55,416 bases of DNA from an uncultured Candidatus Saccharibacteria bacterium (GCA_964462215.1 CAYWVZ010000006.1:1-55416), one strand, 5' to 3'. Positions 2,479-55,028 are shown, numbered from the stretch's first letter. The notes: generated by a model from the letters alone, not told the origin. Numbers and translations are program-made.

Positions 2479-2673
2479 CTACTGGAGCTTGGCTGCTAAC
2501 AGGGTAGTGGCCGGCCGGGTACGCGGTACAGCCGGAGCTTCTGCCCCTTCAAATGCTTTAATAGAACCACAGCGCCGGCACTTTATTTCTATGCGACCGG
2601 TAAAAAACGGGCTCTTAAACAGTAGTTTGCCGCAATCACAACGATACTCATTTGGCTGGCCTGCCGCTGTCAT
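2479..2673 (-). CDS. Small Com-like zinc-ribbon protein
   Basis: MTAAGQPNEYRCDCGKLLFKSPFFTGRIEIKCRRCGSI... has the pattern CxC-KLLFK-...-IEIKC-RC, as in phage Mu Com-type zinc ribbons. ATG 2673 has AAAGGGA 5-6 nt upstream. The ORF-track start at 2715 is a TTG with no SD. Confidence 0.5.
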   Translation of the reverse strand: MTAAGQPNEYRCDCGKLLFKSPFFTGRIEIKCRRCGSIKAFEGAEAPAVPRTRPATTLLAAKLQ

Positions 2674-2752
2674 AGGTTCCCTTTCTTGAATAATCAAGTG
2701 CTGAGGACGAGCCAAACGGTCCGCCCTCAGGCAGCATTATTTTCGCAACCTA

Positions 2753-2770
2753 TTCTTAAAAAGTTCTTAA
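2753..2770 (+). promoter_or_regulatory. Direct repeat TTCTTAA-N4-TTCTTAA (11-bp phasing); candidate OmpR/PhoB-type response-regulator box upstream of the regulator's own gene
   Basis: TTCTTAA at 2753-2759 and 2764-2770, with an inverted copy TTAAGAA at 2816-2822. It sits inside the 16-mer AACCTATTCTTAAAAA (2747-2762), which recurs exactly at 52268-52283. Located 77-94 nt upstream of the regulator ATG at 2847. Confidence 0.4.
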
Positions 2771-2846
2771 TTATTAAATTTTCTATGGTGTTGTGTATAA
2801 AAAGTTAATAAGTTTTTAAGAATTGTATTATTAAATAAAGCCAGTA

Positions 2847-3527
2847 ATGAGTAAACTTCTCGTCGTTGAAGACAATGAACCATTGGCCGCTAGTCTGCAG
2901 AACTGGTTAAGTAAGCAGCACCAGGTTTCGGTTGTCTCCACCGGCCAAGAGGCGTTGTCTCACCTAAAGGAAGATGAGTACGACCTGATTATCCTTGACC
3001 TGGGCCTGCCGGATATGTCTGGCCAGGACGTTTGTACCGAACTGCGCTTAAACGGAGTTAAGACACCTTTGCTCATCCTAACGGCCACCGACGAAGTTAA
3101 CATGAAGGTTACCCTGCTCGACCTGGGTGCCGACGACTACCTGCTCAAACCGTTTTATATCGGCGAGCTGCAAGCCCGTCTGCGGGCTCTGCTGCGCCGC
3201 AGTAAGAACCCCAGCGAGGCCACCAGCGTACTAACGGTGGGCGACCTGGTGCTTGATCCGGCCCGGCGCCAGGTTACCCGCGGCGACAAAGTCATCCGTT
3301 TGCGGCGCAAGGAGTTCGATATTCTGGAATACCTGATGCACAATCGCGGTACGGTAGTAACACGCGCCATGATTATCAACAATGCCTGGGATGCCGGTAG
3401 CGACCGCTGGAATAATACGGTTGACGTACACGTCAAATATTTACGCGACAAGGTGGACAAGCCTTTTAAGCGTAAGCTTATCAAAACTGCATACGGGGTG
3501 GGCTATATGATTGATGACACCATGTAG
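2847..3527 (+). CDS. OmpR/PhoB-family two-component response regulator
   Basis: 226 aa. Receiver domain (LLVVEDNEP ... DLIILDLGLPDMSG ... LLKP) plus winged-helix output domain (LTVGDLVLDP ... RLRRKEFDILEYL ... TAYGVGYMI). Confidence 0.9.
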   Translation: MSKLLVVEDNEPLAASLQNWLSKQHQVSVVSTGQEALSHLKEDEYDLIILDLGLPDMSGQDVCTELRLNGVKTPLLILTATDEVNMKVTLLDLGADDYLLKPFYIGELQARLRALLRRSKNPSEATSVLTVGDLVLDPARRQVTRGDKVIRLRRKEFDILEYLMHNRGTVVTRAMIINNAWDAGSDRWNNTVDVHVKYLRDKVDKPFKRKLIKTAYGVGYMIDDTM

Positions 3528-3559
3528 CTAGTAGCGTAATATACAAGAAAGGAGAGGCC

Positions 3560-3667
3560 ATGAAAGACGTAATTGCCAGCATCTTAACTGATGCCAGCGC
3601 GCGCGACAGCAATACCGTTGAAGATACGTTAATGCAACAAGCAGTTGCGACGCCTTGGGCCAACTAA
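3560..3667 (+). CDS. Unannotated 35-aa peptide MKDVIASILTDASARDSNTVEDTLMQQAVATPWAN (candidate signalling/RiPP precursor)
   Basis: Below the ORF-track size cutoff. ATG 3560 is preceded by AAAGGAGAGG, with the GGAG core 5 nt upstream. 35 sense codons, then TAA at 3665-3667. It fills an otherwise unexplained 213-nt gap between regulator and kinase and is followed by a strong terminator. A single Trp sits 3 residues from the C-terminus. Confidence 0.5.
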   Translation: MKDVIASILTDASARDSNTVEDTLMQQAVATPWAN

Positions 3668-3695
3668 GATCTGTGACTGATCTTGGCCCATAAAT

Positions 3696-3730
3696 ACTGG
3701 GCGTTCTACTAAGGAACGCCCAGTTTTGTT
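3696..3730 (+). terminator. Rho-independent terminator/attenuator between the small ORF and the histidine kinase
   Basis: ACTGGGCGTTC (3696-3706), a 7-nt loop, then GAACGCCCAGT (3714-3724) form a perfect 11-bp stem followed by TTTTGTT. The T-tract abuts the kinase SD (AGGAG 3731-3735), leaving no room for a separate promoter. Confidence 0.7.
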
Positions 3731-3740
3731 AGGAGCTACT

Positions 3741-5114
3741 ATGCTAGAAAGACCGTACCGACAACTTATTGAACCGAAGTCATCCACCCCAGATAGCCGT
3801 AACCGCGAGTTAGTGCTCAATTGTTTACTCCTCGGGACTATACTACTAGCCACGCTAGCCTTGCTTAACACTATTATCAGCCTGGTGTTTTTTGATTATC
3901 AGTTTCTGGCGACGCGCATCATAGCAATTATAGCCGTACTCGTTTTTCTTATATCTTTATATGGTATCGTTCGCAAAGGCTTTCGAGCGGTCGGAGCCGT
4001 TATTCTAATAGGGGTGTTTTTCTTGATCGCCGCATATCTAGCTTATTATTGGGGCACCGTCACTCCTACTGCCGTCCTGATGTTTGGCTTTAGCATTATC
4101 ATGGCTGGCGTATTATTGAGCGCTCGCTATTCCCTCTATGTGGCGGGGGCTTCGATTGTGGCACTCGTGAGTCTCCAGTATTTGCAGGCCGGGATGCGTA
4201 TCCAGGCCGACCTCTCCTGGATGCAGCGACCAGCTACCATGGGTGATATTATTGGTTTTTGCGCCATCTACGGCGTACTGGCTTTGAGCAGCTGGCTCTT
4301 CAATCATCAGATGGAGCGGTCATTGCAGCGGGCTCAGCGGTCAGAGGCGGCCTTGTCGCAGCAAAAAGCCCTGTTAGAGGTCAAAGTCGAGGAACGTACC
4401 CGTCAGCTGGAGGCCGCGCAACTGGAAAAGATCCAGCACGTCTACCGCTTCGCCGAATTAGGGCGTACCAGCAGTGCCCTATTCCATGATCTGGCCAACC
4501 ATTTGACCAGCATGTCATTAGATATCGAAGGCCTGAAGTCGCGCGGGCGCTCCGATATCATGCAGCGCATCAAAAATGACGTTCAGTACATTGATGATGT
4601 CGTGCAGCGGGTTCGTTTCCAGCTGCGCGGCCAAACCAAAACCGAGGAATTCAATGTCGCCAAAGAAATCACTCAGGTTATTAAGATTCTTAAGTACAAA
4701 ACCGGCCAGGCCCGCACTACCATTAAAGTCACTAAAGTCTCCCGCAAGCCAATTATGTATGTTGGTGATGTAACCCGCTTCCGGCAGTTGATCATCAACC
4801 TGCTCAGCAATGCTATCGAAGCCTACCCGCCGCCCACGGGACGGCCCACTGAGCAGCGGTTGGTGGATGTCAAAATTGAACAATTATTTGATGCAATCGT
4901 TTGTATCACTGTAACAGATTGGGGCGTGGGCATTAAGCCGGCCCAAAAGCGCAAAGTCTTTGAGCCTTTTTACAGCAAAAAACCCGAAGGAACGGGCATC
5001 GGATTATTCATCGTCAAGCAAATCATCGAGCAGGATATGCACGGTACCATCAAGCTCACTAGCAGCCCTAAACGCGGCACGGTCTTTACGGTGCATCTGC
5101 CGACTTCGTCATGA
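3741..5114 (+). CDS. Sensor histidine kinase with polytopic (about six TM) membrane sensor
   Basis: The ORF-track start at 3726 is a TTG inside the terminator T-tract. ATG 3741 has AGGAG 5 nt upstream. Six hydrophobic spans lie in the first ~190 aa with no large external loop. These are followed by a coiled coil, H-box FHDLANHL, N-box LLSNAIEA, and G-boxes DWGVGI / GTGIGL. Confidence 0.9.
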   Translation: MLERPYRQLIEPKSSTPDSRNRELVLNCLLLGTILLATLALLNTIISLVFFDYQFLATRIIAIIAVLVFLISLYGIVRKGFRAVGAVILIGVFFLIAAYLAYYWGTVTPTAVLMFGFSIIMAGVLLSARYSLYVAGASIVALVSLQYLQAGMRIQADLSWMQRPATMGDIIGFCAIYGVLALSSWLFNHQMERSLQRAQRSEAALSQQKALLEVKVEERTRQLEAAQLEKIQHVYRFAELGRTSSALFHDLANHLTSMSLDIEGLKSRGRSDIMQRIKNDVQYIDDVVQRVRFQLRGQTKTEEFNVAKEITQVIKILKYKTGQARTTIKVTKVSRKPIMYVGDVTRFRQLIINLLSNAIEAYPPPTGRPTEQRLVDVKIEQLFDAIVCITVTDWGVGIKPAQKRKVFEPFYSKKPEGTGIGLFIVKQIIEQDMHGTIKLTSSPKRGTVFTVHLPTSS

Positions 5115-7102
5115 GAGATGCGGCCTTGACTGTTTCGATTAATCGAGCAACGGTCTGCGGCCTGAAATATATCCGGGCCCAGCAACAAGCCAACGGCGGA
5201 TTCATTAGCCAGTCAAGCCCGCGGCAAACACCGTGGCAACCGGCCTATCACTATCGAACGGTTTTCGTGCCAGCCCTGATGCTGGCTAGCTTAGCGGGCC
5301 AAACAAGTAGGGCTGCTCTGGAGATACGGCAAAAATTAGCCGGTTTTTTACTGACCCAAAAAGGCCCGCACTGGTCGTTTAACTACTGGGCTAAACGGAC
5401 GCCGGAACGCCGTACCATGCCCTATCCGGACGATTTGGACGATACGTTTTGCGCTTTAATCGGCCTGCACCTTCATGATCCGTCCCTGGTAGGTGAGTCG
5501 GCGCTGGCCCAGGTCGTCAAATTACTGGTGGCTACCGAAACAGCCGTCGGCGGGCCATACCGTACCTGGCTGGTAGCGCCCAAGGCCGATCCTAAAGACG
5601 TCTGGCAAGACATCGACTTGGCTGTTAATGCCAATATTGCCTACTTCATAGCTTCGGTTGGCAGCCGTTTGCCGCAACTTGACGCGTTGTTCCAAACCGC
5701 TATCCGGCAACAGCAATACCGTTCACCCTACTACCCTTCCGCCTATCCTATTTGGTACTACCTGGCTCGCGCCAGCTCTGTGCAGATGCGGCCGGCCCTG
5801 CGCCAGACCATCAAGCAAGCCTGGCGGCAGAACAAACAACCAACTCCTCTGGAGACGGCGTTGGTGTTAACCAGTTTATGCCGGCTGGGCGCACCGGCCG
5901 GGCAGCCGCAGCGTTTGGCCAAGCAGTTGCTGGCCGCCCAGCTGCCAGACGGCTCGTGGCCGGCCGCCGCGTTCTGTATCGACCCGGCCCGGCAGCAACG
6001 CCATCACTATCACGGCAGTAGCGCCCTCACAACAGCCTTCGCTCTGGAGGCCCTGGAACGATACCGGCAGTCAAACCAAGCCGAGGCAACCGCACCAGCT
6101 CGTAAACCAGCCGCCAAAGCCGATCCGCGGGCCGGGCGTTTACAGCAGCGCATCCTAACCCAAGCCAGCCGCCAGGCTGACCAGCTGCAGCCTGACCTCC
6201 GGCGGCAATTAAACACGTTCTTGCAGCGAGTTGTCAAAGGTGACACTAAACACGAAATTACCCTACTGCCCTACCTGTTCACAAGGTCTTTGGCGCGTCC
6301 GGCCAAACTGCCTGATTCTTTGTTCATTAACTTTGGTTTGGCCAATCTGTACGGCTGGGTGGCCTATACCATTTATGATGACTTTTTAGACGATGAGGGC
6401 GACCCGCGTTTGCTGTCGGCAGCCAACGTTGCTCTGCGTAATTCTGTGCTCAGTTTTCAGCGGGCCTTGCCCGGTAAGACCGCCTTCCAAAAGCTGGTCG
6501 AACAAACCTTTAACACTATAGATAACGCCAATACCTGGGAAGTTACCCATTGCCGTTTCGCGGTAGACGGCCAATCGATCAAAATCGGCGCGCTGCCGCG
6601 TTACGGCGGGCGGCAAAAACTGGCCGAACGTTCGCTGGGGCACGGCTTGACGCCGCTAGGTATTCTGGTGGCCCGGGGAGCCAGCCTTAACAGCCCGGGT
6701 GTACAGGCCATTGAACAAGCCTTTCGGCATTATTTGATTGCCCGGCAGCTCAACGACGATGCGCACGACTGGAAAGAGGATGTCCAAAAGGGTCATATCA
6801 CCTACGTAGTGGTTTGCATCCTGCAAGAGATGGGCTTGAGCGGGCAACAATCGTTTGCGGATTTATTGCCAACCATGGAACGGCAGTTCTGGCACCATAC
6901 TTTGCCGCGGGTCTGCCGCGATATCCAGCGTCATATAGCCCGGGCGAGGCGATTGCTGGCTAAAAACTCGTATCTGTACCCTGTTAATGCGCTGACAGTT
7001 TTGCTTGATGGGATTGAAGCTTCGACCCAAGAAGCCATAGATAGCCAGCGGCAAACCGTACAATTCCTGCAAAGTTACCGGGGTCAAAAAACAAATTCTT
7101 AA
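5111..7102 (+). CDS. Two-domain isoprenoid-enzyme-like protein: N-terminal prenyltransferase/terpene-cyclase-repeat (alpha/alpha toroid) domain fused to a C-terminal class-I isoprenoid-synthase-like domain
   Basis: 663 aa, with ATGA overlap with the kinase stop (5111-5114). N-terminal domain: QQANGGF, AVGGPY, LPDGSWP repeats and YPDDLDDTFCAL (DxDDT, nt 5429-5446). C-terminal domain: YDDFLDDEGD (6377-6397) and, 125 aa later, LNDDAHDWKED (6752-6781). The CDS call is secure. The function is inferred from motifs only. Confidence 0.6.
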   Translation: MRDAALTVSINRATVCGLKYIRAQQQANGGFISQSSPRQTPWQPAYHYRTVFVPALMLASLAGQTSRAALEIRQKLAGFLLTQKGPHWSFNYWAKRTPERRTMPYPDDLDDTFCALIGLHLHDPSLVGESALAQVVKLLVATETAVGGPYRTWLVAPKADPKDVWQDIDLAVNANIAYFIASVGSRLPQLDALFQTAIRQQQYRSPYYPSAYPIWYYLARASSVQMRPALRQTIKQAWRQNKQPTPLETALVLTSLCRLGAPAGQPQRLAKQLLAAQLPDGSWPAAAFCIDPARQQRHHYHGSSALTTAFALEALERYRQSNQAEATAPARKPAAKADPRAGRLQQRILTQASRQADQLQPDLRRQLNTFLQRVVKGDTKHEITLLPYLFTRSLARPAKLPDSLFINFGLANLYGWVAYTIYDDFLDDEGDPRLLSAANVALRNSVLSFQRALPGKTAFQKLVEQTFNTIDNANTWEVTHCRFAVDGQSIKIGALPRYGGRQKLAERSLGHGLTPLGILVARGASLNSPGVQAIEQAFRHYLIARQLNDDAHDWKEDVQKGHITYVVVCILQEMGLSGQQSFADLLPTMERQFWHHTLPRVCRDIQRHIARARRLLAKNSYLYPVNALTVLLDGIEASTQEAIDSQRQTVQFLQSYRGQKTNS

Positions 7103-7147
7103 ATAGTTATTAATTTTTGCGGGGTTAGCAGCGGACTTTAGTATAAT
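7096..7147 (+). promoter_or_regulatory. radC promoter region: TTCTTAA/TTATTAA 11-bp-phased repeats plus TATAAT placed 7 nt before the ATG
   Basis: TTCTTAA at 7096-7102 (includes the TAA stop of the upstream gene) and TTATTAA at 7107-7113. TATAAT at 7142-7147, ATG at 7155, and no SD in between. Confidence 0.4.
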
Positions 7148-10127: not shown

Positions 10128-10778
10128 ATGTTGGCCTCCCCCAAACAGCAAGCTGCGTTCTTACGTATCTTCACGCAGGGCACCAAGCTAACCTACAAAA
10201 AGGGTTCATTTATCATTCACCCCGGAGAAACGCCAAGCGGCGTTTTTTATATTGAATCGGGCCTGGTCAAAGCGTACGACATTTCTAAATACGGCGAAGA
10301 AAACCTGCTGAGCATCCGGCGGCCCAAGGAAATGTTCCCCCTGATCTGGTCGTTAACCGGCCAGGGGCACAACATTATCTATGAAGCGCTGGGCCCGACC
10401 ACTGTCTGGCGGGTTAGCCGCGAGCAATACCTGGAAAGGCTGCGCCGCGACAATGAGACCTTTGCTCCCCTGCTAGACGTTATTATCGAGATGTACCGCG
10501 GCCACTCCGAACGTATTTTGGGGCTGGAGTACCGGACAGTACGCGAGCGGCTGATTGCTTTTTTGCTGACTACTGCCCAGCGGTTCGGCAAGCAACGGGT
10601 GAATGGCAGTATTTTGTTGAATGTCCCCTTAAAACAGCAGGATATCGCCAGCTCCATCAGCGCCACTCGCGAAACCACCAGCCGCGAACTAATGCGCCTG
10701 GAGCGCTTGGGGCTGATTTCTAACCACCAGGCTAAAATAACGTTAGTCGACCCGGCCAAGCTGCGCGCTATGCTATAA
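10128..10778 (+). CDS. Crp/Fnr-family transcriptional regulator
   Basis: 216 aa. cNMP-binding-like beta-roll (GVFYIESGLVKAY...) plus C-terminal HTH (QQDIASSISATRETTSRELMRLERLGLI). Confidence 0.85.
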   Translation: MLASPKQQAAFLRIFTQGTKLTYKKGSFIIHPGETPSGVFYIESGLVKAYDISKYGEENLLSIRRPKEMFPLIWSLTGQGHNIIYEALGPTTVWRVSREQYLERLRRDNETFAPLLDVIIEMYRGHSERILGLEYRTVRERLIAFLLTTAQRFGKQRVNGSILLNVPLKQQDIASSISATRETTSRELMRLERLGLISNHQAKITLVDPAKLRAML

Positions 10779-50970: not shown

Positions 50971-50993
50971 GACCTCAAGTATACTAGGTTTTG

Positions 50994-52055
50994 ATGAAGA
51001 TTTTAGGGATTGAATCGAGTTGCGACGAAACAGCAGCCGCCGTGGTCGAAGACGGCCGGCGGTTGCTAGGCAGCGTGGTAGCCAGCAGCATGGCCCAACA
51101 CGTGCAGTACGGCGGCGTGGTGCCCGAGATCGCCGCCCGCAGCCACATTGAGGTAATTATCCCTGTTATTGAGCGGGCTTTGGCCGAAGCGGACTGCACC
51201 TGGGACGACATCGACGGCATGGCCGTCACCTACGGCGCCGGTTTGGGCGGCTGCTTGCTGGTGGGCGTAATGACCGCCCGCAGCCTGGCCATCGCCAAAA
51301 ATAAGCCGCTGTACGCCTGCAACCACGTCGAGGGACATGTGTACGCTAACTTTCTTACCAGCACTTCCCTGCCCGGCTACGTTTTGCCCAAGCAGCCGCC
51401 CAAATTCCCCCTGTTAGCACTGATTGTCAGCGGCGGCCACAGCCAGCTGGTGTTGTTTCGCGACCACTTCGATTACACCCTGCTGGGCCAAACCCACGAT
51501 GACGCCATCGGCGAAGCGTTCGACAAAGTCGCCAAAATCCTTGGCTTGCCCTACCCTGGCGGCCCCAGTATCGGCGTTAGGGCTAAAGAGGGCGACCCCT
51601 ACGCCTTCGAGTTCCCCAAGGCCAAGCTGGCCGCCCCCTATGACTTTAGCTTCTCTGGGCCCAAGACAGCCGTTTTAAGGGCCGCTCAAGAGGTTTGCGG
51701 TAAAGACCACGCCTTCCCCTCTTTTGAGCTTGCCGGGCTGCTCTCTGAGGCTCAGAAGGCCGATATTGCCGCCAGTTTCCAGCGGGTGGCCGTCGAAACA
51801 GTGGTCGATAAGACCATTCAGGCCTACCAAGAGTTCCAGCCGGCCAGTGTGGTCATTGCTGGCGGCGTAGCCGCCAGCCCGGAACTGCGGCGGCAACTGG
51901 CCGAACGACTGCCCCACCCTATTAATTACACCGATCCTAAGCTCTGTACCGACAACGGTGCCATGATCGCCGCATTGGGCTGCTTTATGGCTCTGAACCA
52001 GCAACCAACCGCCGACCCCTATTCCCTGGCCATCCAGCCCAACCTATCGATGTAA
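50994..52055 (+). CDS. tsaD: tRNA N6-threonylcarbamoyladenosine transferase TsaD
   Basis: MKILGIESSCDETAAAVV ... CNHVEGHV ... SGGHSQL ... DNGAMIA. Confidence 0.93.
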   Translation: MKILGIESSCDETAAAVVEDGRRLLGSVVASSMAQHVQYGGVVPEIAARSHIEVIIPVIERALAEADCTWDDIDGMAVTYGAGLGGCLLVGVMTARSLAIAKNKPLYACNHVEGHVYANFLTSTSLPGYVLPKQPPKFPLLALIVSGGHSQLVLFRDHFDYTLLGQTHDDAIGEAFDKVAKILGLPYPGGPSIGVRAKEGDPYAFEFPKAKLAAPYDFSFSGPKTAVLRAAQEVCGKDHAFPSFELAGLLSEAQKADIAASFQRVAVETVVDKTIQAYQEFQPASVVIAGGVAASPELRRQLAERLPHPINYTDPKLCTDNGAMIAALGCFMALNQQPTADPYSLAIQPNLSM

Positions 52056-52248
52056 AAAGCCCGCTAACAGTTGAGGTTATTTTGCGGTTGTGGGGGCTTG
52101 TTGTCGATGTTATGCTTATGATTGAAAACAAACATTGGGAAAAGGAACGAATGCAGGCCTGCGCGTTCTGTTGGTTGTGGTTCATATGTCTTTGGGCATT
52201 CTTCAAAAACCGGTTTTTTCCGGAAAAGTTAAGAATGTTTTAACTTCA

Positions 52249-52341
52249 TGTGGATAACTAATTATTGAACCTATTCTTAAAAACTGATTAAATTTCCGAA
52301 AGTTTTTCCACAGGCTACCGAATATGCTATGCTGTGGAAAA
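52249..52341. promoter_or_regulatory. Cluster of DnaA-box matches in a 405-bp AT-rich intergenic region
   Basis: TGTGGATAA (52249-52257) is the exact complement of TTATCCACA. TTTTCCACA (52304-52312) and TGTGGAAAA (52333-52341) are 8/9 matches; extended by one base each they give a 10-bp inverted repeat (52304-52313 / 52332-52341) with an 18-nt spacer. There is also a 7/9 match at 52176-52184. Confidence 0.45.
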
Positions 52342-52392
52342 TTTCAAAAAAAGCCCATTAATTAATCGACAGATACTTAAAAAGTTATTAAC

Positions 52393-52420
52393 TCTTAAAA
52401 AAATCTTAAATTCCTCTTAA
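52393..52420 (+). repeat. Three TCTTAA direct repeats at exact 11-bp spacing upstream of valS
   Basis: TCTTAA at 52393, 52404 and 52415, with a degenerate AATTAA at 52426. They lie 41-68 nt upstream of the valS ATG. Related TTCTTAA (52274-52280) and TTAAGAA (52229-52235) lie further upstream. Confidence 0.5.
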
Positions 52421-52460
52421 GATTTAATTAAATTTTAAGGAGAAAAAAGGTAAAATTTTC

Positions 52461-55028
52461 ATGAAATTGTCCAAGGTATATGAACCCAGCCAATACGAGT
52501 CGACGGTTTATGCGTTGTGGGAGAAAACCCAAGCCTTCGCGCCCAAGCAGCGGGGAAGTAAGGGCAGTTTTAGTATTGTCGTGCCGCCGCCCAACGCCAA
52601 CGGCAACCTTCACCTGGGGCATGGGCTAACGCTGGCTATCGAGGATGTGCTGGTACGGTATCATCGGCTAAAAGGGGAGTCTGCGCTGCTGTTGCCGGGC
52701 GCCGACCATGCCGGTTTTGAAACCCAGGTGGTATACGAAAAAGAGCTGGCCAAAACAGGCAAGAGCCGCTTCGATTTCAGCCGCGAACAGCTATACGACC
52801 AGATTTATGACTTCGTGAGCGCCAACAAAGATAATTACGAATCCCAGTTCCGCCGGCTCGGCGCCAGCGTAGACTGGTCGCGTTACGTCTTTACGCTGGA
52901 CGACAAGATTGTTAAACGGGCCTATGATACCTTCAAACAGATGTGGGACGACGGTTTGGTGTACCGCGGTAATCGTTTGGTTAACTTCTGTACCTTCCAC
53001 GGTACGGCTTTCGCCGATATTGAGGTGGCCTACAAAGAAGCAAAAGGGCACTTGTGGCACATCCGCTACCCGCTAACGGACGGCAGCGGGGAGCTGGTAG
53101 TCGCCACCACCCGGCCGGAAACCATGCTCGGTGACACTGCCGTAGCTGTCCATCCGGATGACCCGCGCTACCAAAAGTATATCGGCAAAACTGCCCGGCT
53201 TCCCCTGACGAATCGGGAAATTCCGGTTATCACCGACGCCATGGTGGAACGCGAGTTCGGCACCGGTGCCGTCAAGATCACGCCGGCTCACGACCCCAAC
53301 GACTATGAGGTCGCCCAGCGCCACGACCTGCCGTTTATAACCATTATCGACCACGAGGGCAAGCTGACGGCCGAGGTGCCCGAGGCCTACCGCGGCCTGG
53401 ACGTCAAAGAAGCCCGCAAAACAGTGGTCAAAGACCTGACGGAGCAGGGTTTACTGGCCGAAACCGAGGACATCACACACAACGTCGGGCACTGCTACAA
53501 GTGCGGCACGGTCATCGAGCCGTTGTTGCGCGACCAGTGGTTCGTTGACATGCAACCGCTCGTCCAGCCGGCCATCCAAGCCCTAGAGAAGGGTGCCATA
53601 ACCTTTTATCCGGAGGCTAAAAAACAGCAGCTTATCACATACCTGCAGGGGTTAAAGGATTGGAATATCAGCCGGCAGATTGCCTGGGGCATCCCGATTC
53701 CGGCCTTCCAGAACATCGATGACAGCGACGATTGGATCTACGACGAACGGGTAGACGAGGAGTTACTCGAAATCGACGGCAAAACTTACCGCCGCGACCC
53801 GGACGTCTTCGACACCTGGTTCAGCAGCGCCAGCTGGCCCTACGCCACACTGGATTACCCCGACGGCCAGGATTTCAACCAATTCTACCCCTTGAGCGTT
53901 ATGGAGACCGGCGCCGATATCCTCTACCCTTGGGTTAGCCGGATGATCATGTTCGGCCTATACGTAACAGGGGAGGTGCCGTTCAAAAACGTTTACCTGC
54001 ACGGCCTGGTGCTCGACCAGCACGGCGCCAAAATGAGCAAAAGCAAAGGCAACGTGGTTGACCCGATGGAAAAAGTGACCGAGTTTGGCTCGGACGCCTT
54101 TCGCATGGGCATCATTGCCGGCCAGACGCCGGGCCACAACCAACCCTATGACGAGAGCAAGCTGGTTGGCGCCCGTAACTTCTGTAATAAGCTCTGGAAT
54201 ATGGCGCGATTTATCGAGGATAAGCTGGGCGACCAGCCAGTTACTACCAGTCCGGAACCCCAAACTCCGGCCGATCACTGGATATTGCATAAATTACAAC
54301 AGTCTACAGAGGCGGTGGAACAGTATTTGGACGAATACCGGATTTCTGAGGCCTACGAAACCGTCTATCACTTGGTATGGGATGATGTGGCCGATTGGTA
54401 CATTGAAGCCTCTAAGACGGCCGTGAATCCCTCTGTGCTGGCTTATACGCTGCAAACCGTACTGCAGTTAGCCCACCCGTTCGCGCCGTTTGTTACCGAG
54501 ACAATTTGGCAGACCCTGGCCTGGGAGCCAGACAGTGTCTTGGCGACCAGCGGGTGGCCGGAGACACACCAGGCTAGCCAGAAGCAAGCCCGTACTTTTG
54601 AAGAGATTAAGGCTGTCGTGACCGAAGTCCGCGGCCTAACCAATGCCCTGAAAGCCCGCAACCTGGAACTGCATTATGCCGACGCACCGCTGCTAGCCGA
54701 ACAGGCCGAGCTGATCGCCCGCCTGGCCCGCCTAAAAGCAATTACGCAAGCGCCCGATGACGGGGAAGGGGTACGGCTGGTACAAACACCGTACCAGGCC
54801 TGGCTGAACGTCAGCGCCAAAGCCGCCCAGGCCTACGCCGATGAGCTACAAACCAAGCAGGCCGAGCAAGAGCAGGTTATTAAGCAGCTTAAGGGGCGGC
54901 TGGCTAACAAAAGCTATGTCACCAACGCACCGTTCAGCGTCGTTCAGCAAACCAAAGACCAGCTGGCCGAAGCTGAACAGCTCCTCGGCACCTTGGCTGC
55001 CGAAGCCAGCCGCTTCAACAAAGTTTAA
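52461..55028 (+). CDS. valS: Valine--tRNA ligase
   Basis: 855 aa. PPPNANGNLHLGH (HIGH), KMSKSKGN (KMSKS), CP1 editing domain, and a C-terminal coiled coil. Confidence 0.97.
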   Translation: MKLSKVYEPSQYESTVYALWEKTQAFAPKQRGSKGSFSIVVPPPNANGNLHLGHGLTLAIEDVLVRYHRLKGESALLLPGADHAGFETQVVYEKELAKTGKSRFDFSREQLYDQIYDFVSANKDNYESQFRRLGASVDWSRYVFTLDDKIVKRAYDTFKQMWDDGLVYRGNRLVNFCTFHGTAFADIEVAYKEAKGHLWHIRYPLTDGSGELVVATTRPETMLGDTAVAVHPDDPRYQKYIGKTARLPLTNREIPVITDAMVEREFGTGAVKITPAHDPNDYEVAQRHDLPFITIIDHEGKLTAEVPEAYRGLDVKEARKTVVKDLTEQGLLAETEDITHNVGHCYKCGTVIEPLLRDQWFVDMQPLVQPAIQALEKGAITFYPEAKKQQLITYLQGLKDWNISRQIAWGIPIPAFQNIDDSDDWIYDERVDEELLEIDGKTYRRDPDVFDTWFSSASWPYATLDYPDGQDFNQFYPLSVMETGADILYPWVSRMIMFGLYVTGEVPFKNVYLHGLVLDQHGAKMSKSKGNVVDPMEKVTEFGSDAFRMGIIAGQTPGHNQPYDESKLVGARNFCNKLWNMARFIEDKLGDQPVTTSPEPQTPADHWILHKLQQSTEAVEQYLDEYRISEAYETVYHLVWDDVADWYIEASKTAVNPSVLAYTLQTVLQLAHPFAPFVTETIWQTLAWEPDSVLATSGWPETHQASQKQARTFEEIKAVVTEVRGLTNALKARNLELHYADAPLLAEQAELIARLARLKAITQAPDDGEGVRLVQTPYQAWLNVSAKAAQAYADELQTKQAEQEQVIKQLKGRLANKSYVTNAPFSVVQQTKDQLAEAEQLLGTLAAEASRFNKV

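Follow-up and report, generated by a model that had tools for sequence, protein, structure and literature searches.

A four-gene cassette conserved across CPR bacteria links a small tryptophan-containing peptide and a predicted two-domain isoprenoid enzyme to a two-component system

We describe a four-gene cassette, encoding a response regulator, a tiny peptide, a polytopic histidine kinase and a 663-aa enzyme, which is real and conserved across ultra-small CPR bacteria. In the window, by which we mean the whole 55,416-nucleotide stretch analysed here from an uncultured Candidatus Saccharibacteria bacterium, the gene order is regulator, peptide, kinase, enzyme. An earlier note on this DNA had proposed a ComQXPA-like, independently assembled prenylated-peptide signalling or RiPP system. 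Our analysis supports that proposal, since conservation of the small ORF, the fold of the C-terminal enzyme domain and synteny all agree with it, and further support comes from a polyprenyl synthetase in ~22 loci and from a class II cyclase domain with its DxDD motif intact. On balance we lean towards the cassette being a self-regulated peptide-signal module, in which a peptide bearing a cyclised isoprenoid is both produced and detected. If so, it would be the first conserved system of signalling between cells to be put forward for CPR bacteria. Enzymes of this kind are already known, as peptide maturases that fuse a prenyltransferase to a cyclase were reported in 2024 (review PMC13290415); the novelty lies in the link to a two-component system and a tiny precursor, and in the wide occurrence among CPR.

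The cassette in the window and in related loci

The five colinear elements that had been claimed were each found again in the window, with only small corrections to a stem length and to a sixth TM helix. The features are the following:

2753..2770, minus strand: putative regulator box 1, TTAAGAA-N4-TTAAGAA, a 7-bp direct repeat in 11-bp phase (exact pattern match)
2805..2822, plus strand: putative regulator box 2, TTAATAA-N4-TTAAGAA, in inverse orientation to box 1 (pattern match)
2847..3527, plus strand: OmpR/PhoB-family response regulator, 226 aa (Pfam Response_reg E 1.8e-26, Trans_reg_C E 5e-24)
3548..3557, plus strand: Shine-Dalgarno AAAGGAGAGG of the peptide gene (sequence)
3560..3667, plus strand: candidate precursor peptide gene, 35 aa, MKDVIASILTDASARDSNTVEDTLMQQAVATPWAN (73 homologues)
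3696..3731, plus strand: stem-loop and TTTTGTT tract between the peptide and kinase genes (folding)
3741..5114, plus strand: polytopic sensor histidine kinase, 457 aa (HATPase_c E 2e-25)
5111..6091, plus strand: enzyme N-terminal domain, aa 1-327, predicted single-barrel class II terpene cyclase (phmmer, Foldseek)
6125..7081, plus strand: enzyme C-terminal domain, aa 339-657, trans-isoprenyl-diphosphate-synthase-like fold (AF2 model, Foldseek)
7096..7113, minus strand: putative third regulator box, TTAATAA-N4-TTAAGAA, overlapping the enzyme stop codon and upstream of radC

Synteny of the four genes in relatives, which the earlier note had named as a test of its proposal, holds across three CPR superphyla. 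The order peptide-kinase-enzyme is kept in ~70 loci from Saccharibacteria, Microgenomates and Parcubacteria, and these three genes are contiguous in essentially all of the ~70 informative loci, including those from which the regulator has moved away. Of 80 sources, the window and 79 loci, 75 have the kinase gene directly 5' of the enzyme gene; the peptide gene is found at most ~1.5 kb upstream of the enzyme gene in every informative locus. An OmpR-type regulator is encoded upstream in most of the ~70 cassette loci, and the regulator gene precedes the kinase gene in 62 related loci. No conserved protease or exporter was found in the cassette neighbourhoods of related loci, which counts against the prenyl-peptide reading.

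Both Pfam matches of the regulator agree with its earlier assignment to the OmpR/PhoB family, and its NCBIfam matches are to the heavy-metal/PmrA/RppA-like subfamily. The kinase carries ~6 TM helices with short loops, a coiled-coil, an H-box (FHDLANHL) and a HATPase_c domain, and its polytopic sensor has no extracellular domain. The sensor had been described as six TM helices with no large external loop; the short loops (8-12 residues) and five strong hydrophobic segments within residues 24-187 bear this out, while the sixth segment is weaker. Six helices, an even number, would fit the basic N-terminus of the kinase.

A true polyprenyl synthetase gene, which could supply a prenyl donor, is part of the cassette elsewhere: it follows the enzyme gene directly in 17 loci, usually with a 4-nt overlap (PF00348, E 1e-57), and lies between regulator and peptide in 2 more. 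There is none in the window cassette nor anywhere within its 55 kb, a further point against the prenyl-peptide reading.

The candidate precursor peptide and the predicted two-domain enzyme

Judged by its sequence and that of its homologues, the small ORF is a real gene. The 35-codon ORF with a strong Shine-Dalgarno is present as the earlier note had it, and an ORF with an invariant Trp occurs in essentially every related locus with enough upstream sequence. The window peptide has an N-terminal ILTDxxxR motif, Arg15, and Pro32-Trp33 followed by two residues. Among the 73 homologues (72 unique), Trp and Arg15 are kept in 73/73 and Pro stands directly before the Trp in 58/73. The Trp lies near position 33, its spacing from the N-terminus being almost constant; 1-7 residues follow it, and it is usually second to fifth from the C-terminal end of a precursor of 34-41 aa. 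Invariant residues are encoded by 4-6 synonymous codons, from which it follows that selection acts on the peptide as a protein. GGAG-type Shine-Dalgarno sequences (often AAAGGAGG) precede most of the homologous ORFs and are missing in several AT-rich loci. The peptides of Saccharibacteria are acidic and not membrane-like; those of Microgenomates and Parcubacteria have a hydrophobic middle and a basic N-terminus and so resemble a small membrane protein, which counts against the prenyl-peptide reading.

The enzyme gene (5111-7102, plus strand) starts with an ATG that overlaps the kinase stop codon as ATGA, and the Asp-rich motifs claimed for its product are there (PYPDDLDDT, YDDFLDDEGD and LNDDAHDW). 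The AF2 model (pLDDT 91.5) has two domains. What had been called an extra toroid is predicted to be a class II terpene cyclase domain, with the alpha/alpha barrel and the general-acid DxDD(T) of that class present and the catalytic DxDD intact (D108-L-D-D111, at 5432-5443). Its phmmer match is drimenol synthase 9mhs (E 1.9e-7), in which PDDLDTT aligns with PDDLDDT, and Foldseek matched it to 9mhs (1.6e-11), 8pak, MstE 6sbb and SHC. D108, L109 and D110 are kept in 72/72 homologues, D111 in 71/72 and T112 in 70/72.

The C-terminal domain models as a trans-IPPS fold, in line with the isoprenoid-synthase fold that had been anticipated. The all-alpha fold and the two facing Asp-rich motifs (FARM and SARM) of this class are present, as DDFLDD at aa 423-428 (6377-6394) and Q546-x-x-D-D-x-H-D553 (6746-6769). 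Foldseek matches were GGPPS 5jfq (3e-4), 4jyx and 5ze6, with a target TM of 0.58-0.67; E values ran from 3e-4 to 3e-3 across GGPPS, OPPS and HexPPS. Of 72 enzyme homologues, 71-72 retain DLDD, DDxxD and QxxDDxxD. A profile search of the domain against PDB sequences gave no match, hhalign against the co-encoded IDS of related loci returned a probability of 0.5%, and none of 31 enzyme members had a Pfam match to PF00348, the canonical chain-elongating family. The enzyme has no prenyltransferase, polyprenyl_synt or ComQ match in Pfam or NCBIfam, again a point against the prenyl-peptide reading, and one weak Pfam match, Terpene_syn_C_2, covers the second Asp motif. That motif is a canonical DDxxD (DDxHD), not the ComQ-type pseudo-SARM NDxxx, and could belong to a class I terpene synthase as well. 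By the model the domain shares the fold and the two Asp-rich motifs of trans-IPPS enzymes without sequence-level membership; this lack of sequence similarity and the DDxxD form of the second motif both count against the prenyl-peptide reading.

Hairpin and putative regulator boxes

The intergenic hairpin has a 12-bp stem and a 5-nt loop (3696-3724) followed by TTTTGTT, and the T-tract runs straight into AGGAG (3731-3735) ahead of the kinase ATG at 3741. The terminator had been described with a T-tract abutting the kinase Shine-Dalgarno, as we find, and with an 11-bp stem, which is one base pair short. Its folding z-score against shuffles is -5.5, and a stable hairpin (z < -2) follows the peptide stop in 35/73 loci vs 2/73 control segments, often without a T-tract in the related loci. 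No alternative antiterminator pairing was found at the hairpin, which we take to be a partial terminator or a transcript-stabilising hairpin.

The 11-bp-phased direct repeats reported before the regulator gene were also found, and recur in 30/61 loci as TTAAKAA-N4-TTAAKAA near the regulator start (within -150..+60 of it). Box density there is 2.81 per kb, vs 0.059 per kb in other AT-rich DNA (~48-fold), and the window holds 5 box sites vs 0.04 in whole-window shuffles. Box 1, on the plus strand TTCTTAA-N4-TTCTTAA, recurs in L001 and L008, two close relatives; box 2 lies ~42 nt before the regulator ATG, just 5' of a TATTAT -10-like hexamer; and the position of the third box also holds a box in L001, L008, L018, L027 and L028. 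The traits of an OmpR/PhoB two-component system are present, namely a regulator that combines receiver and winged helix, a kinase with HATPase_c, and direct repeats in ~11-bp phase, which the regulator may bind. Boxes also precede radC and valS.

Known systems, a proposed mechanism and its rivals

ChrPC and NctPC (Hubrich et al. 2024, Chem 10:3224) are fused prenyltransferase-terpene cyclase RiPP maturases. As described in the review PMC13290415, a prenyltransferase domain (trans-IDS-like in ChrPC) is joined to a monodomain MstE-like class II cyclase, and the Trp of a nearby-encoded ribosomal peptide is prenylated with a C10-C20 donor, after which the chain is cyclised. All trans-IDS-like peptide prenyltransferases characterised so far target Trp, according to this review and the StheQ preprint. 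By its AF2 model and Foldseek matches, MstE among them, the window enzyme likewise combines a trans-IDS-like fold and a monodomain class II cyclase fold in one polypeptide (ChrPC itself being compared by description), and an adjacent ribosomal precursor with a Trp is found in every informative locus. The substrates of ChrPC and NctPC are reportedly natural-product precursors of the proteusin, Nif11 or lasso type. The cassette is unlike them in that its precursor has only 34-41 aa and in its conservation across CPR phyla, and we found no report in the literature of a histidine kinase and response regulator linked to enzymes of this type.

With ComQXPA of Bacillus the cassette shares an IPPS-superfamily transferase (here by fold), a small candidate precursor with a Trp a few residues from its end, a polytopic kinase in the receptor position, a response regulator, and a locus without a dedicated exporter or protease. 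The differences pointed out earlier (an OmpR-type regulator, the gene order and an extra domain) all hold: the order is A-X-P-Q vs Q-X-P-A, the regulator is of the Trans_reg_C type vs the NarL/LuxR type of ComA, and the enzyme, which resembles no ComQ-type model in sequence, carries a class II cyclase domain in addition. Moreover, the second Asp motif is DDxxD vs NDxxx, the precursor 35 aa vs ~55 aa, and the host CPR vs Firmicutes. We rejected membership of the ComQ family (IPR033965, FARM plus pseudo-SARM NDxxx), as there is no Pfam or NCBIfam match and the motif is DDxHD; the resemblance goes no further than fold class.

PalQ/PalX (Paenibacillus) and StheQ/StheX (Sphaerobacter) also combine a trans-IPPS fold with FARM and a Trp at or near the peptide C-terminus, second from the end in StheX compared with usually second to fifth in the cassette. 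StheQ Q212/N215/D216/D219 corresponds to Q546/D549/D550/D553 of the window enzyme, both having a Gln one turn of helix ahead of the second motif, a feature that does not discriminate because ordinary trans-IDS enzymes have it too (FQxxDD). Unlike the cassette enzyme, PalQ and StheQ are stand-alone, single-domain, ComQ-like Trp C3-prenyltransferases without a linked kinase, and their precursors are longer (69 aa; in PalX, an NHLP leader). The best matches of the N-terminal domain, with the catalytic Asp motif aligned, are MstE, the drimenol synthase AsDMS and the drimenyl diphosphate synthase SsDMS, which are monodomain or HAD-fused class II cyclases. They differ in that their substrates are small molecules (for MstE, a prenyl chain that already sits on an aromatic ring) and in having no fused IPPS-like domain. 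In the drimentine pathway of Streptomyces, a Trp diketopiperazine is C3-farnesylated and then cyclised to a drimane. This is the logic proposed here, indole C3 prenylation followed by protonation-driven cyclisation of the chain, although drimentines use a tRNA-derived cyclodipeptide and separate, unrelated enzymes (a phytoene-synthase-like prenyltransferase and a membrane cyclase).

Fold, motifs and gene context lead us to propose that the 35-residue peptide would be the substrate of the 663-aa enzyme. The C-terminal domain would take a prenyl diphosphate, probably C15 or C20, supplied in many genomes by the adjoining polyprenyl synthetase, and alkylate the invariant Trp near the peptide C-terminus, like ComQ, PalQ, StheQ and the P domain of ChrPC. 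The N-terminal class II domain would cyclise the isoprenoid chain via its DxDD acid, either after transfer, as in MstE and the C domain of ChrPC, or, equally, before it, in which case a drimenyl- or copalyl-type diphosphate would be formed first and then ionised by the C-terminal domain. By analogy and from the cis-elements, the lipidated peptide, whole or trimmed, may enter the membrane and be detected by the six-helix sensor of the kinase, which would phosphorylate the OmpR-type regulator. The regulator would bind TTAAKAA-N4-TTAAKAA and raise expression of its own operon, a positive feedback, and of a few other promoters, and the hairpin after the peptide gene would keep peptide mRNA in excess of kinase and enzyme mRNA.

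On an unlikely alternative reading, the 663-aa protein would act alone as a bifunctional terpene synthase, its class II domain cyclising FPP or GGPP and its class I-like domain ionising the product; the kinase would sense the free terpenoid, and the small protein would be a kinase accessory or connector like MgrB/SafA rather than a substrate. Such class II-then-class I logic is standard in diterpene synthases, abietadiene synthase is among the fold matches (Foldseek rank 33), and the canonical DDxxD with its weak Terpene_syn_C_2 match, the TM-like middle of peptides outside Saccharibacteria and the lack of a conserved protease or exporter would all suit it. However, the best C-terminal fold matches are chain-elongating trans-IPPS enzymes and not class I cyclases, an invariant Trp at fixed spacing beside an IPPS-like enzyme is what characterises ComX/ComQ, PalX/PalQ, StheX/StheQ and ChrPC substrates, the acidic peptides of Saccharibacteria are not membrane-like, and a kinase accessory needs no such tight coupling to the enzyme gene in ~70 loci.

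We give similarly little credence to a product made by the same Trp prenylation and cyclisation that is no population signal, being instead a reporter of isoprenoid or envelope status that stays in the producer membrane, or an effector or antimicrobial RiPP that targets the host bacterium and whose production is all that the two-component system controls. CPR bacteria are epibionts with tiny genomes, and an exporter is not conserved in the cassette; known prenyl-cyclised RiPPs are, according to the review PMC13290415, natural products untied to kinases; and the radC and valS boxes suggest a wider physiological regulon. Against this, a kinase gene always set between those of peptide and enzyme, with a purely intramembrane sensor, is the layout of autoinducing-peptide systems, the autoregulatory boxes fit positive feedback, and a few-residue core around one Trp without an immunity gene is unlike typical antimicrobial RiPPs. 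It is very improbable that adjacency is mere operonic convenience, an ordinary envelope-stress two-component system sharing a transcript with an enzyme of isoprenoid lipids by chance, and the small ORF encoding a conserved leader or attenuator peptide whose product has no function. The hairpin after the small ORF does recall leader-peptide attenuators, but it often lacks a T-tract and has no alternative antiterminator pairing, and leader peptides keep codon content, whereas here Arg15 and Trp33 are invariant across phyla with many synonymous codons in use; the strong Shine-Dalgarno and fixed length likewise favour a functional protein.

The cassette and its two-domain enzyme

From the sequence, an earlier note had described five colinear plus-strand elements, and Pfam, ORF and folding checks recovered all of them at the described places.

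Elements of the cassette (window positions, strand, description)
2847-3527, +, OmpR/PhoB-type response regulator (Pfam Response_reg, E 1.8e-26; Trans_reg_C, E 5e-24)
3560-3667, +, peptide gene of 35 codons, product MKDVIASILTDASARDSNTVEDTLMQQAVATPWAN, with the ribosome-binding site AAAGGAGAGG 5' of the ORF
3696-3724, +, stem-loop with a 12-bp stem and a 5-nt loop, followed by TTTTGTT
3741-5114, +, histidine kinase with an HATPase_c domain
5111-7102, +, ORF of the 663-aa enzyme, its ATG overlapping the kinase stop codon

Two details had to be amended. The hairpin does carry a T-tract, TTTTGTT, that directly abuts the AGGAG and ATG (3741) of the kinase, but its stem measures 12 bp and not the 11 bp originally counted. 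The kinase had been credited with a sensor of six transmembrane helices and no large external loop; its residues 24-187 contain six hydrophobic helices, five strong and the other weaker, and since the loops joining them are just 8-12 residues long, the protein has no extracellular sensor domain.

For the enzyme family, Pfam and NCBIfam gave just weak, sub-threshold matches to SQHop_cyclase and Prenyltrans in the N-terminal domain and no match at all in the C-terminal domain. Using phmmer on PDB sequences, residues 93-316 could be aligned with a bacterial drimenol synthase over its class II cyclase domain (E 1.9e-7), with PYPDDLDDT of the enzyme lying over FPDDLDTT of drimenol synthase. We then built an AlphaFold2 model from a 31-sequence alignment. 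The model is confident (mean pLDDT 91.5) and has two helical domains, 1-327 and 339-657, separated by a disordered linker. Searched with Foldseek against the PDB, the N-terminal domain matches class II terpene cyclases, one-barrel or beta-domain-centred, among them drimenol synthase (1.6e-11), the small myxobacterial cyclases 8pak/8paj, the monodomain meroterpenoid cyclase MstE, drimenyl diphosphate synthase and squalene-hopene cyclase. The isoprenoid-synthase fold suspected for the C-terminal domain was borne out by the model, which matches trans-isoprenyl diphosphate synthases such as GGPPS 5jfq (3e-4), as well as 4jyx and octaprenyl and hexaprenyl synthases (target TM-scores 0.58-0.67). A profile of this domain retrieved chance matches only from all PDB sequences (E at least 0.19), and hhalign gave a probability of 0.5% against the polyprenyl synthetases encoded beside it in related loci. 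We therefore regard it as a very divergent member of the fold; the latter value also led us to reject the idea that it is a second chain-elongating synthase. Across 72 enzyme homologues, D108, L109 and D110 are invariant and D111 is kept in 71; D423, D427, Q546, D549 and D553 are likewise invariant, D550 is kept in 71 of the 72, and several aromatic residues are also preserved.

Spread of the cassette and conservation of the small peptide

To survey the family we scanned one genome per GTDB species with an alignment of 31 sequences homologous to the 663-aa enzyme. This yielded 190 confirmed enzyme loci, and the 80 fetched for study belong, by record title, to Saccharibacteria, Microgenomates (Daviesbacteria, Levyibacteriota, Shapirobacteria) and Parcubacteria (Moranii-, Colwell- and Doudnabacteria). 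As located by tblastn with the window proteins, the kinase gene adjoins the enzyme gene on its upstream side in essentially all loci with enough sequence, and the regulator gene lies upstream of the kinase in most, being found downstream, on the opposite strand, in a few. The neighbours radC, ychF and a Crp-like regulator gene are common only to the closest Saccharibacteria, so the conservation is specific to the cassette. Peptide, kinase and enzyme genes occur together in loci of all three groups, as expected of the single system that the earlier note had proposed. Among the 1.84 billion cluster representatives of a sequence library, 1,080 belong to the enzyme family at E <= 1e-30. The best 150 of these are all 500-680 aa long, almost all above 600 aa, and align in a single stretch that covers both domains in nearly every case, indicating that the domain fusion is fixed.

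The proposal of a hidden peptide gene also held. Wherever the upstream sequence reaches far enough, a homologous ORF of 34-41 codons is found 5' of the kinase, also in the loci whose regulator has moved and where other DNA lies upstream. The 73 homologues (72 unique) share the N-terminal motif h-h-x-x-h-L-T-(D/S)-x-x-x-R, in which Arg15 is invariant, and keep the Trp, which falls at position 31-36 with just 1-7 residues behind it and, in 58 of the 73, a Pro in front. Differences between the genes are mostly at third positions, and many different synonymous codons encode the conserved residues (five at Arg15, six at Leu9, four at Pro32), which argues that selection acts on the protein. Most of the ORFs are preceded by a GGAG-type Shine-Dalgarno sequence. 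Judged from these alignments, the small ORF is a genuine gene. Its product differs between lineages in the central part, which is acidic or polar in Saccharibacteria. In the Microgenomates and Parcubacteria loci (L031-L077 of our set) this part is hydrophobic, behind a Lys/Arg-rich N-terminus and with a PW ending, resembling in sequence a signal peptide or transmembrane helix. One homologue, at 6403-6507 of locus L050 (KKLLKKVFINKVIRD...LVWS), has no ATG, GTG or TTG start downstream of the stop codon before it; the copy may be decaying, use a non-canonical start or contain a sequencing error.

Clustering of all locus ORFs brought out one recurrent extra neighbour, a canonical polyprenyl synthetase (PF00348, E 1e-57), which would supply the prenyl donor. 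In 17 loci, spread over several lineages, its gene lies directly 3' of the enzyme gene and in most cases overlaps it by 4 nt; in two further loci it is on the opposite strand. In two patescibacterial loci, L043 (397-1419) and L044 (5310-6347), it sits between the regulator and peptide genes, and we therefore conclude that the donor synthase was recruited into the cassette independently. No polyprenyl synthetase gene is present within the 55-kb window.

A candidate lipopeptide signal and its alternatives

The cassette resembles ComQXPA in its working outline, but differs from it in regulator class (OmpR-type), gene order and enzyme family, and hence is not an orthologue, in line with the doubts already expressed on simple orthology. 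Trp in ribosomal peptides is the prenylation target of ComQ, PalQ, StheQ and the P domain of ChrPC, all of them trans-IDS-like (PMC13290415; 10.64898/2026.08.29.745113). NctPC and ChrPC are fusions of a prenyltransferase with an MstE-like cyclase, the attached chain being cyclised afterwards (PMC13290415). By architecture our enzyme groups with the fused prenyltransferase-cyclase maturases reported in 2024. In StheQ, FPP is positioned by the first Asp-rich motif (FARM) and Q212, one helical turn before N215/D216/D219 (10.64898/2026.08.29.745113). The same spacing is seen in Q546/D549/D550/D553 of the window enzyme, a likeness that is compatible rather than diagnostic because ordinary trans-IDS enzymes also have FQxxDD.

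We tentatively propose that the cassette encodes an ancient, CPR-wide autoinducer, a ribosomal peptide carrying a cyclised (drimane- or labdane-like) terpenoid on its Trp, made by a bifunctional cyclase-prenyltransferase and read by an intramembrane kinase. In the less far-reaching reading that we favour, the peptide would be the substrate of the enzyme, whose C-terminal domain would transfer a C15-C20 isoprenoid onto the invariant Trp and whose N-terminal domain would cyclise the chain before or after transfer. The polytopic kinase would then detect the lipopeptide within the membrane. The signal may leave the cell. No conserved protease or exporter was found near the cassette, ABC and MFS genes being present in just 5-7 loci.

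The same chemistry might instead serve an intracellular or effector role in place of quorum sensing, which we consider rather unlikely. The enzyme could also be a bifunctional synthase of a free terpene, with the small protein as a kinase accessory. The canonical DDxxD of the second motif and the hydrophobic peptides of some lineages would suit such an enzyme, but the invariant Trp fits it poorly, as does a C-terminal fold that matches IPPS-like and not cyclase-like proteins, and we find this explanation improbable. Nor is the small ORF likely to be a leader-peptide attenuator, since its conservation is at the amino-acid level.

A full-text search of the CPR/Patescibacteria literature for ComX, prenylation, terpenes and RiPPs found no account of the cassette, and both ComQ/ComX and prenylation go unmentioned in a survey devoted to CPR quorum-sensing genes. 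What appears to be new is the coupling of a probable terpene-cyclising peptide maturase to a two-component system, combined with a minimal precursor and CPR-wide conservation. These bacteria account for a large part of bacterial diversity, with minimal genomes and few recognised biosynthetic clusters, and to our knowledge almost no signalling is known in them experimentally. At least a thousand sequence clusters (50% identity) from CPR organisms retain the cassette, and this breadth, together with a dedicated prenyl-diphosphate synthase in many genomes, implies strong selection for a lipidated peptide and its receptor. If true, the proposal would describe the first known pheromone of the terpenoid-peptide kind and, for CPR episymbionts, the first known system of communication that spans the lineage. 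It would offer a testable handle on kin or host sensing by epibionts, extend the terpene-cyclised ribosomal peptides of 2024 from natural products into signalling, and provide compact soluble enzymes (~650 aa, with a 35-aa substrate) for putting cyclic terpenes on peptides.

Regulatory DNA and neighbouring genes

The 11-bp-phased repeats claimed ahead of the regulator gene proved to be two copies of TTAAKAA-N4-TTAAKAA in opposite orientation, at 2753-2770 and 2805-2822. Five such boxes occur in the window against 0.04 in whole-window shuffles, a control that ignores intergenic AT-richness. Among related loci, 30 of 61 have a box within -150..+60 of the regulator start, where the density is 2.81 per kb; the remaining AT-rich DNA of these loci has 0.059 per kb. 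Sites of OmpR/PhoB regulators classically take the form of a 7-4-7 direct repeat, so autoregulation through these putative boxes can, by analogy, reasonably be inferred; in the mechanism that we propose, the regulator would use them to feed back on its own operon. A third box (7096-7113) overlaps the enzyme stop codon just upstream of radC and is kept at the corresponding place in the five closest relatives (L001 9953, L008 9788, L018 6237, L027 4007, L028 9906); the regulon may include radC or an antisense transcript.

The hairpin between peptide and kinase genes had been read as a leaky terminator. A stable hairpin lies at most 60 nt 3' of the peptide stop in 35 of 73 loci, compared with 2 of 73 control segments taken from within the kinase gene (Mann-Whitney p = 2e-5), and the window segment folds with z = -5.5 against shuffles. 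Although stability and recurrence were thus confirmed, a T-tract follows the hairpin in only a minority of loci, and for this reason we prefer to describe it as a conserved stem-loop, attenuating or stabilising, and not as a proven terminator.

Two more boxes (52274-52291 and 52374-52391) lie upstream of valS (52461-55028), in the intergenic region 52056-52460 that follows a tsaD-like gene (50991-52055). The 14-nt CCTATTCTTAAAAA at 52270-52283 recurs unchanged at 2749-2762, ahead of the regulator gene, and this 400-nt spacer also contains the inverted repeat TTCCACAG...CTGTGGAA. The regulator may have another target promoter here, or the region may encode a small transcript that is not annotated. 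Rfam gave no match in either of the two odd intergenic regions searched, 52056-52460 included, and no family above threshold in window 1-55416, where no tRNA gene was found either. An RNA gene in the apparently ORF-free first 1.85 kb was rejected, as the stretch is occupied by a minus-strand ORF of 621 codons that the window edge truncates.

A 78-aa zinc-ribbon protein (2479-2715, minus strand; weak Mu Com-like match, PF10122, E 2.7e-4), 74-85% identical in L001, L008 and L018, is encoded divergently from the regulator, and the box-containing intergenic region is common to both genes. The window also encodes a Crp/Fnr-like protein of 216 aa (10128-10778), with ~35% identical Saccharibacteria counterparts directly upstream of the cassette. 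Such a gene lies ~100-150 nt upstream of the regulator in L003, L007, L012, L019, L020, L028, L029, L033 and L056, and is itself preceded by a TTAAKAA box in L003, L012, L020, L033 and L056.
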